From a virus: DNA of 64,000 nucleotides. Numbering within the stretch: position 1 is the first letter of the stretch; every line of letters starts with the position of its first letter. Positions 1-39,504 of this stretch are shown here, piece by piece. A program made the translations under genes and the position numbers. The DNA is taken from positions 32,109 to 96,108 of the IMG/VR virus record IMGVR_UViG_3300044833_000182, one strand, 5' to 3'. The notes below the pieces were generated by a model. That model was not told the origin of the DNA. It ran no database searches and saw only the letters and a program-made list of their open reading frames with translations.

Positions 1-417
1 CCGTACCTGGCCGGCCGCGATCCGGCTGCCCCGCTGTTCTCGCCTGCGGAGGCGCGAAAAGAGCGCAACGCTGCCCGGCGAGCGGCGCGAAAGACGCCCG
101 TGCAGCCGTCGCAGCAGGACCGCAGCAAGAAGGACCCGGCGCGGAAGCCTGGCGAGCGCTGGACCACGGAGAGCTACGCTCACGCGATCGCCAGCGCGAT
201 CCGCAAGGCCAACCGGGCGCGAGCGGAGAAGGGACTGCCGCCCGTCGCTCACTTTCACCCTCATCAGCTTCGCCATAACGCGGCGGGAGAACTGAAGCGG
301 CAATTCGGCTGGGAAGTTGCCCGAATTGTCTGCGGCCATACGAGCGTCCAGACCACGTCGGGGTACGTCCAGCGCGATCTTCGCGCGGCTTTCGAGGCCG
401 TTGAGAAGGTCGGTTGA
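1..417 (+). CDS. int: Tyrosine recombinase/integrase, C-terminal part (5' truncated by the window)
   Basis: Frame is open from base 1 (PYLAGRDPAAPLFSPAEA..). Catalytic box II HPHQLRH..CGH..TTSGY. Confidence 0.92.
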   Translation, partial: PYLAGRDPAAPLFSPAEARKERNAARRAARKTPVQPSQQDRSKKDPARKPGERWTTESYAHAIASAIRKANRARAEKGLPPVAHFHPHQLRHNAAGELKRQFGWEVARIVCGHTSVQTTSGYVQRDLRAAFEAVEKVG

Positions 418-38849: not shown

Positions 38850-38877
38850 TTGACACCGCCCGTCTAACTGGTAAGAT
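38850..38877 (+). promoter_or_regulatory. Sigma70-type promoter P3
   Basis: TTGACA-16-TAAGAT with TGn; shares CCTTGACACC..TG.TAAGATACA with P1. Confidence 0.75.
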
Positions 38878-39378: not shown

Positions 39379-39504
39379 GCCCGGTTCGTTCAACGGAGAA
39401 GGAGGGGCAAGACGGCTGGCGGCTAGCCACCAGCACCCGTCACCCCCGAAAGAGGACACCGGCAACTAAGCCGGAGATGGGCGGTTCGACTCCCCCGCCG
39501 GGCG
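39379..39504 (+). ncRNA. tRNA-like RNA 2 (cloverleaf with a ~56-nt hairpin inserted in the D-loop and a 6-nt anticodon loop)
   Basis: Acceptor GCCCGGT/GCCGGGC; D-stem GTTC/GGAC; CCGGC-AACTAA-GCCGG; T-loop TTCGACT; intergenic. Confidence 0.7.

Follow-up and report, generated by a model that had tools for sequence, protein, structure and literature searches.

We found that a 126-nt segment in the genome of an uncultured soil virus has the shape of a tRNA with one arm too many. The element lies at positions 39379-39504, on the plus strand, of the window (the whole stretch of 64,000 nt that was analyzed, which comes from a 96-kb uncultured virus record of a soil metagenome), and it consists of a class-I tRNA body with a hairpin set into the D loop. 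It is a real and conserved element, and an uncatalogued one, with no match to any Rfam family. We tentatively favor the view that phages pass it on horizontally as a self-contained gene and that its product is a tRNA mimic that does not decode, which would be cut out by the tRNA-processing enzymes of the host and would act in trans.

A tRNA body with a fifth arm

A sequence-only reading of this DNA had proposed a tRNA-shaped RNA with a hairpin in the D loop and a loop unfit for decoding, and every structural part that it named is present in the sequence where it had placed it (Table 1). The cloverleaf core and the bases that make the tertiary contacts (U8, A14, G18-G19, A21, and the T loop) are present and are conserved in three members of the family, and position 26 is a purine. 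That reading left out one imperfection, in the T stem, which contains a C-C mismatch at 51:63 or, alternatively, a bulged C. The minimum-free-energy fold of the element is modestly better than those of shuffled sequences (z = -2.3), which alone is weak evidence.

Table 1. Parts of the element, flanking features in the window, and the two further members of the family
Feature	Position	Strand	Remarks
Acceptor stem	39379-39385 with 39497-39503	+	6 Watson-Crick pairs plus U-G
U8	39386	+	
D stem (positions 10-13)	39388-39391 with 39454-39457	+	4 bp, long-range closure
D loop, 5' part: A14, G18, G19, A20	39392-39397	+	5 of 6 letters invariant across the three members
Inserted extra arm	39398-39452	+	55 nt, directly after A20
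Extra arm, basal helix	39404-07 / 39443-46	+	compensatory changes
Extra arm, internal loop	39408-10	+	3 nt
Extra arm, second helix	39411-15 / 39437-41	+	5 bp, invariant
Extra arm, bulge	39434-36	+	3 nt, invariant, on the strand opposite the internal loop
Extra arm, third helix	39416-19 / 39430-33	+	compensatory changes
Extra arm, cap	39420-29	+	10 nt
A21, then D stem 3' strand	39453-39457	+	A21 at 39453
Anticodon-type stem	39459-39463 with 39470-39474	+	5 bp, invariant
Anticodon-type loop	39464-39469	+	6 nt, no U33
Variable region	39475-39478	+	short (4-5 nt); identical in all members
T arm	39479-39496	+	canonical T loop; identical in all members
Discriminator G	39504	+	CCA not encoded
Sigma-70-like promoter match	38850..38877	+	10/12, extended -10; ~500 nt upstream of the element; consensus match only
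Upstream ORF, 73 aa	39152..39373	+	no Pfam family; stop codon ends 5 nt before the element
Next ORF, 62 aa	39562..39750	+	first of the small-gene array; Cys-rich; zf-FCS match 22.0 bits versus Pfam cut-off of 22.4 bits
Second member	L010:5117-5293		in the 67.9-kb record; arm of 106 nt
Third member	L170:1499-1665	minus	in the 115.7-kb record; arm of 96 nt; identical copy in a 14-kb record

That reading had also expected a canonical tRNA call to be missing or weak, and this was borne out. ARAGORN with default settings reported no tRNA or tmRNA in the entire 96-kb record; in tmRNA mode it was negative on the element, and with introns allowed and thresholds lowered it returned only implausible calls. 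Rfam had no match at the gathering score in the window, and none to the element segment even at E <= 10. When the arm was deleted in silico, default ARAGORN called a tRNA of 71-72 nt with a two-base anticodon, and such a call was obtained for all three members. We also wrote a strict scanner that demands a T arm, a 7-bp acceptor stem, a 5-bp anticodon-type stem, a 4-bp D stem, and the D-loop GG, while leaving the length of the D loop free. In 1.55 Mb of DNA, for the most part from unrelated viral contigs, the family of the element and a neighboring tRNA-Thr were the only sources of long D loops, and no spurious match occurred.

Other structural identities were tried and rejected. A tmRNA was dismissed on the lack of a tag reading frame and of pseudoknots and on the negative outcome of ARAGORN in tmRNA mode and of Rfam, and a tag peptide encoded in the arm on the lack of a reading frame common to the members. 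For an archaeal-type intron, the helix has 5 bp instead of 4 and the module lies inside the arm, and the phage records hold no gene for a splicing endonuclease or RtcB. For a group I intron, the arm measures 55-106 nt, as against more than 200 nt with a P1-P9 core, it occupies the D loop and not the anticodon loop, and there is no Rfam match. A type-II tRNA, in which a local D hairpin forms and the hairpin of the 6-nt loop serves as variable arm, can be drawn for two of the members only; the third does not allow it, and every member supports the long-range D stem. Finally, a K-turn in the conserved internal loop would require a register that breaks the invariant helix.

Conservation across three dissimilar phages

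Exact-pattern scans of 2.9 million viral contigs recovered two further distinct members of the family, both in uncultured viral contigs (Table 1). The body, the D-loop arm, and the length of 6 nt for the anticodon-type loop are common to the three members, which have the same T arm and variable region. Their RNAs are 78% identical overall, and the last 35 nt of the body are 100% identical. A covariance model built from the three members themselves scored them at 206, 180, and 140 bits, with the next match, an ordinary phage tRNA-Ile that has the same T arm, at 45 bits. In the model-based alignment, 97% of the pair cells hold standard pairs, versus 40%-55% when the partners are slid by 1-3 columns. 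All four single-sided changes in the three-way alignment keep the pairing; in the D stem, a U-G pair is replaced by C-G in L010 and is thus maintained. In the arm, two pairs are changed on both sides in the three-way alignment, one of them being represented by three different Watson-Crick pairs in the three sequences, and two more compensatory pairs in the distal arm are seen between the two long arms (96 and 106 nt). The covariation to which the sequence-only reading had looked for confirmation is present in the form of these compensatory and pair-preserving changes; coming from three sequences, with most pairs of the tRNA body invariant and shuffle controls that are not decisive, it is suggestive.

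The 6-nt loop has the same length in every member, and three of its six positions vary: it contains CUA in two members and CUG in one, and U33 in none. A length that is fixed while the letters vary argues both against random decay and against a fixed anticodon. The distal arm also differs in length among the members, and is nevertheless folded in each. Given two further distinct homologues in unrelated phages, and a strict scanner that yields no spurious matches, the fold is more than a product of chance. The proposal that the RNA is something other than an ordinary decoder is supported as well, the homologues being not ordinary tRNAs beside a single armed copy in the window but RNAs that all carry the D-loop arm and the 6-nt loop.

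Searches beyond these contigs returned no further member. No member turned up in the cultured phages searched, and the covariance model found none in 151 sampled Actinomycetota genomes (a sample only, searched without a positive control). Among sequencing runs, a look-up of the locus listed one DNA run, the probable source of the record, and no RNA run. When metagenomes were scanned for the variable region plus T arm, the yield was two contigs with tRNA arrays and nothing from the family; in a loose-pattern scan, only chance matches were left after filtering among the matches listed. In 185,579 species, represented by one genome each, we found no ordinary tRNA with the 3' half of the element, which argues that the element is not a copy of a host tRNA; the patterns used ended in the acceptor letter of the window, and copies resembling the third member would escape them. 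The 21-nt string of the T arm and acceptor strand had seven matches in the same genomes, consisting of chance matches in coding sequence, minihelices in prophages, and three other small tRNA-like loci.

The RNA is the only nucleotide-level similarity among the three phages in six-frame and ORF-level comparisons. A DNA-methylase domain occurs in all three; one pair of phages has in common the tyrosine integrase and one further protein, another pair the portal and one further protein, and all of these shared-protein matches are at 26%-48% identity. The G+C content is 63%-64% in two of the records and 73.5% in the third. Because the last 35 nt are identical despite such different genomes, the RNA would seem to be under very strong constraint or to have been exchanged horizontally, and probably both.

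The genomic context differs from phage to phage. In the window, the element heads an early small-gene array, and the promoter match at 38850-38877 is likely the start of the transcript that carries it. The 67.9-kb phage carries it about 500 bp upstream of the tyrosine integrase, with the tail and tape-measure region on the other side. In the 115.7-kb phage, it lies ahead of the portal and head genes as one of four tRNA-like genes on the same strand; a promoter-like sequence ahead of this cluster was read by eye, and the promoter scan did not call it. A stop codon lies 5-6 nt ahead of the element in the window and in L010, and the ORFs on either side are co-directional. With three such differing contexts, a trans-acting cassette fits better than a local cis signal. 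The expectation that the RNA would be made early applies to the window alone, with its small early genes; of the other two phages, one has the element adjoining the integrase and the other has it before the operon of head genes.

No partner protein is conserved across the three phages, and the three records contain no gene for ArgRS, a CCA-adding enzyme, RtcB, a splicing endonuclease (PF01974 and PF01139 are absent), or Ro60. A search of viral contigs with each of the two flanking proteins yielded a single weak relative, with no RNA beside it. The phage of the window encodes a tyrosine integrase (window 1-417; G000:C1:31101-32525), 40 kb from the element, and is therefore probably temperate; no integrase was found in the third phage, whose record is 71% complete. 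The terminase is ∼40% identical to those of assorted Gram-negative phages. A DNA methylase ORF (L177:571-2214, in G001) has a LAGLIDADG-like domain in the middle of the protein (Pfam E = 1.3e-6), which may represent an intein or a homing-endonuclease insertion.

Armed tRNAs, minihelices, and other tRNA-like loci

The tRNA-like cluster of the 115.7-kb phage contains a tRNA-Thr(UGU) (L170:1137-1309, minus strand; G002:C1:17734-17910) that has a normal 7-nt anticodon loop and a structured insert of 104 nt in the D loop, right after G18-G19. ARAGORN calls this gene only with the insert removed, and its Rfam match is limited to model positions 10-63 (27.9 bits). Since a tRNA with a normal loop carries a comparable arm, the arm alone is no mark of a non-decoder. 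D-loop arms placed after G18-G19 thus appear, on sequence grounds, to be a recurring feature in this phage that is not restricted to non-decoders. The view that D-loop inserts are unknown needs softening accordingly, given a normal-looking tRNA-Thr armed at the same site in a related phage. The same cluster holds two more tRNA-like genes on the minus strand: one (L170:1731-1801) has a 6-nt loop with UCA, G8 in place of U8, and a C1-G72 pair, and the other (L170:1050-1123) has an 8-nt loop with UCA and an Rfam tRNA score of 45.9 bits.

We also observed minihelices of ∼45 nt, composed of an acceptor stem and a T arm with neither D arm nor anticodon arm, which follow a stop codon and precede the next ribosome-binding site. 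They were found in 24 viral contigs (e.g., L018:6570-6611, minus strand; L003-L027) and in cultured phages of Gordonia, Mycobacterium, Corynebacterium, and Streptomyces, where they are unannotated in GenBank (e.g., Gordonia phage Cafasso, 80352-80395). The acceptor stem and T arm of the element are letter-for-letter those of the minihelices, with 21 nt of the T arm and 3' acceptor strand identical. The sequence-only reading had assumed a Planctomycete phage, an assumption that finds no support here, the top half of the RNA being that of minihelices from phages of the genera just named.

The acceptor and T-arm letters of the element recur, around a different middle of ∼65 nt, at two loci in Burkholderiales MAGs (L152:7513-7590 and L153:1732-1810) and at one in Streptomyces (L154:6759-6829). 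The two Burkholderiales loci have an apparent sigma-70 promoter ahead of them, judged by eye, and ARAGORN calls none of the three chromosomal loci. A tRNA array from a metagenome includes, between tRNA-Pro and tRNA-Met, a segment without a call (L148:464-621) that has the variable region of the element and its odd T arm; no matching 5' acceptor strand was found there. An otherwise ordinary phage tRNA-Ile(GAU) (L147:8519-8593) has the same imperfect T stem, with the C-C mismatch or bulged C, and so this kind of T arm is not restricted to non-decoders either.

A candidate tRNA mimic and its place among known systems

For the processing of the element, its action in trans, and its target, we infer the following. 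The mimic would descend from a class-I phage tRNA, retaining everything that is needed for the L-shape and for end-processing; indeed, the acceptor stem, U8, A14, G18-G19, A21, the purine at 26, the T loop, and a variable region of 4-5 nt are all retained. Two changes would separate it from such a tRNA, namely the structured fifth arm after A20 and an anticodon loop shortened to six bases and devoid of U33. Bacterial RNase P, RNase Z, and the CCA-adding enzyme recognize the elbow and the helix formed by the acceptor stem and T arm, and excision is expected because the body keeps the bases of both. The element would be transcribed within a longer RNA, in which host RNase P would cleave at G39379 and the 3' tRNA nuclease after the discriminator G39504; the CCA-adding enzyme of the host may then complete the RNA. 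Once released, the 126-nt RNA would act in trans: a host factor with affinity for tRNA bodies would be tied up by it, as by a decoy or sponge, and no codon would be read. The cuts would also separate the flanking cistrons, as a side effect.

We prefer a trans-acting mimic to a mere cutting signal because the D stem, the anticodon-type stem, and the base of the arm are conserved, because the gene moves as a unit, and because the loop length is fixed. A competing explanation, which we regard as unlikely, is one of pure punctuation in cis, resembling t-elements: the sole role of the fold would be to direct cleavage of the polycistronic RNA by RNase P and RNase Z, so that the two upstream ORFs are separated from the small-gene array, and the released RNA would be functionless. 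An acceptor/T-arm fold between cistrons suits the window and L010, where the element follows the stop codon by 5-6 nt between co-directional ORFs, and the same acceptor and T arm form the minihelices found between stop codon and ribosome-binding site; plant mitochondrial t-elements offer a precedent (PMC1920247). The third phage does not conform, for there the element belongs to a cluster of tRNA-like genes, with nothing in between to punctuate. Moreover, the minihelices indicate that RNase P and RNase Z need the top half only, yet the D stem, the anticodon-type stem, the tertiary-contact bases, and the base of the arm are invariant or covarying, and the RNA has moved as a unit between unrelated phages.

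It seems to us distinctly improbable that the element is a working tRNA, with an arm that is tolerated or is removed by an unknown pathway, and with a 6-nt loop that decodes in an unusual way (CUA/CUG, NCU with a shifted loop, nonsense suppression, or frameshifting). No member has U33, no register yields a 7-nt loop, and the putative anticodon differs between members. The mismatched 51:63 pair falls in the region of the T stem that sets the affinity for EF-Tu. None of the three phages has a splicing endonuclease or RtcB, and the loop-helix-bulge module lies inside the arm and not at its base, so that excision of the archaeal type would not restore the D loop; a crude comparison of stop-codon read-through in open frames gave no sign of TAG recoding in the phage of the window. 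Against these points must be set the neighboring tRNA-Thr(UGU), which combines a normal 7-nt loop with a 104-nt arm at the same D-loop site, the genes of that cluster with 6-nt and 8-nt loops containing UCA, and the CUA or CUG within the loop of the element itself (two members and one, respectively). A decaying tRNA pseudogene that acquired an insertion and hitch-hikes without function would account for the non-canonical loop, the imperfect T stem, and the lack of any tRNA-finder call. We consider this very unlikely, since the body, the loop length, and the base of the arm are kept in three unrelated phages, with pair-preserving and compensatory changes, a distal arm that varies in length yet is folded, and a 35-nt 3' part that is identical between genomes of 63%-64% and 73.5% G+C. 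The least probable alternative by our estimate, with hardly any chance of being right, is a feature of the DNA, either an attP site or the remnant of an integration into a tRNA gene. Only the 3' fragment of a tRNA is needed for attP, and not the complementary 5' strand, the D arm, and a covarying extra arm; no tRNA with the 3' half of the element was found among the 185,579 species genomes, the integrase of the window's phage is 40 kb away, and none was found in the third phage (with its 71% complete record). What attP would explain is the 67.9-kb phage, in which the element lies ∼500 bp upstream of a tyrosine integrase, between tail and early genes, the classic position of attP; phages often integrate into tRNA genes and may carry lysogeny-linked tRNA genes (PMC10865867).

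Returning to the non-decoding mimic, arginine-type marks provide a weak lead to its target. The published identity set of tRNA-Arg comprises A20, C35, U/G36, and A/G73 (PMC9976931). In all three members, A20 follows G18-G19, directly before the arm. Positions 3-4 of the loop read C-U in every member, with a purine and then A next, an order also seen in NCU arginine tRNAs, although this loop lacks one base on its 5' side; the discriminator is a purine, as in the arginine set. The best host matches of the covariance model are tRNA-Arg(CCG), tRNA-Asp, and tRNA-Arg(UCU); in a plain similarity comparison, however, the body resembles tRNA-Arg no more than it does tRNA-Ile or tRNA-Asp. The arm, beside A20, might block ArgRS instead of permitting it to bind. 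A more specific proposal, which is possible but rather doubtful, is that soil phages trade a tRNA-Arg-like decoy whose marks would be kept for a host tRNA-binding enzyme or for a tRNA-targeting immune nuclease. The 6-nt loop and weakened T stem would bar it from translation, and the D-loop arm would be its handle; large D-loop arms would be a recurrent, tolerated site of expansion in phage tRNAs, including the tRNA-Thr with the 104-nt arm, which is apparently able to decode. If this is true, a fifth arm would be added to the accepted architecture of tRNA.

Mimicry of tRNA is a known route by which viruses engage host machinery. Here, a conserved RNA of bacterial viruses combines a whole tRNA body with a fifth arm in the D loop and a non-decoding loop; it has no Rfam entry, and our literature searches returned no description of a D-loop arm together with a contracted anticodon loop. 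Its near letter-perfect upkeep and its exchange among unrelated phages point to a specific host target, for which a synthetase, a tRNA-modifying or tRNA-processing enzyme, and a tRNA-directed antiphage toxin are candidates, and identifying this target could expose a new layer of conflict between phages and hosts. The site of the arm, at position 20 on the outer corner of the tRNA, may furthermore serve as a natural, tolerated insertion point in the engineering of tRNA scaffolds.

The closest published kinds are tRNA-like processing signals and the tRNA mimics of viruses and bacteria, and we found no paper in which any of these has both a D-loop arm and a contracted anticodon loop. Plant mitochondrial t-elements (Forner et al. 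2007, PMC1920247) and the mascRNA of MALAT1 are likewise non-decoding tRNA-like folds within longer transcripts, where they are cut by RNase P and RNase Z. Two of the three phages have the element right behind a stop codon, as would suit a signal of this kind. However, t-elements and mascRNA need and keep mainly the half formed by acceptor stem and T arm. In the element, the L-shape is retained in full and is joined by an extra arm, the whole travels among phages as a gene, and cleavage is a prediction made here. The phage minihelices are intergenic and on the coding strand, as is the element, but have no D, anticodon-type, or extra arm. The 3' tRNA-like structures of plant viruses, the tRNA-like domain of tmRNA, and the bacterial YrlA Y RNAs all imitate the shape of tRNA to engage tRNA-binding proteins without ordinary decoding; the element has no tag frame, pseudoknots, or Rfam match, its phages have no Ro60 gene, and it ends at the acceptor stem instead of being permuted as in YrlA. 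Archaeal pre-tRNAs can have non-canonical bulge-helix-bulge introns in the D loop (e.g., PMC3241643), and there too a structured segment occupies the D loop; in the arm of the element, a short helix separates a 3-nt loop on one strand from a 3-nt bulge on the other. The archaeal motif (3-4-3) sits at the exon boundaries, while in the element the helix has 5 bp, the module is inside the arm, and the phages are of bacterial type. With the canonical elongator tRNA of bacteria and phages (RF00005), finally, the element has in common the 7-bp acceptor stem, U8, the 4-bp D stem with G10 and Y11-R24, A14, G18-G19, A21, R26, the 5-bp anticodon-type stem, the short variable region, the T loop, and the intergenic location; it differs from it in the D-loop arm of 55-106 nt, the 6-nt loop that lacks U33, and the mismatched or bulged T stem.
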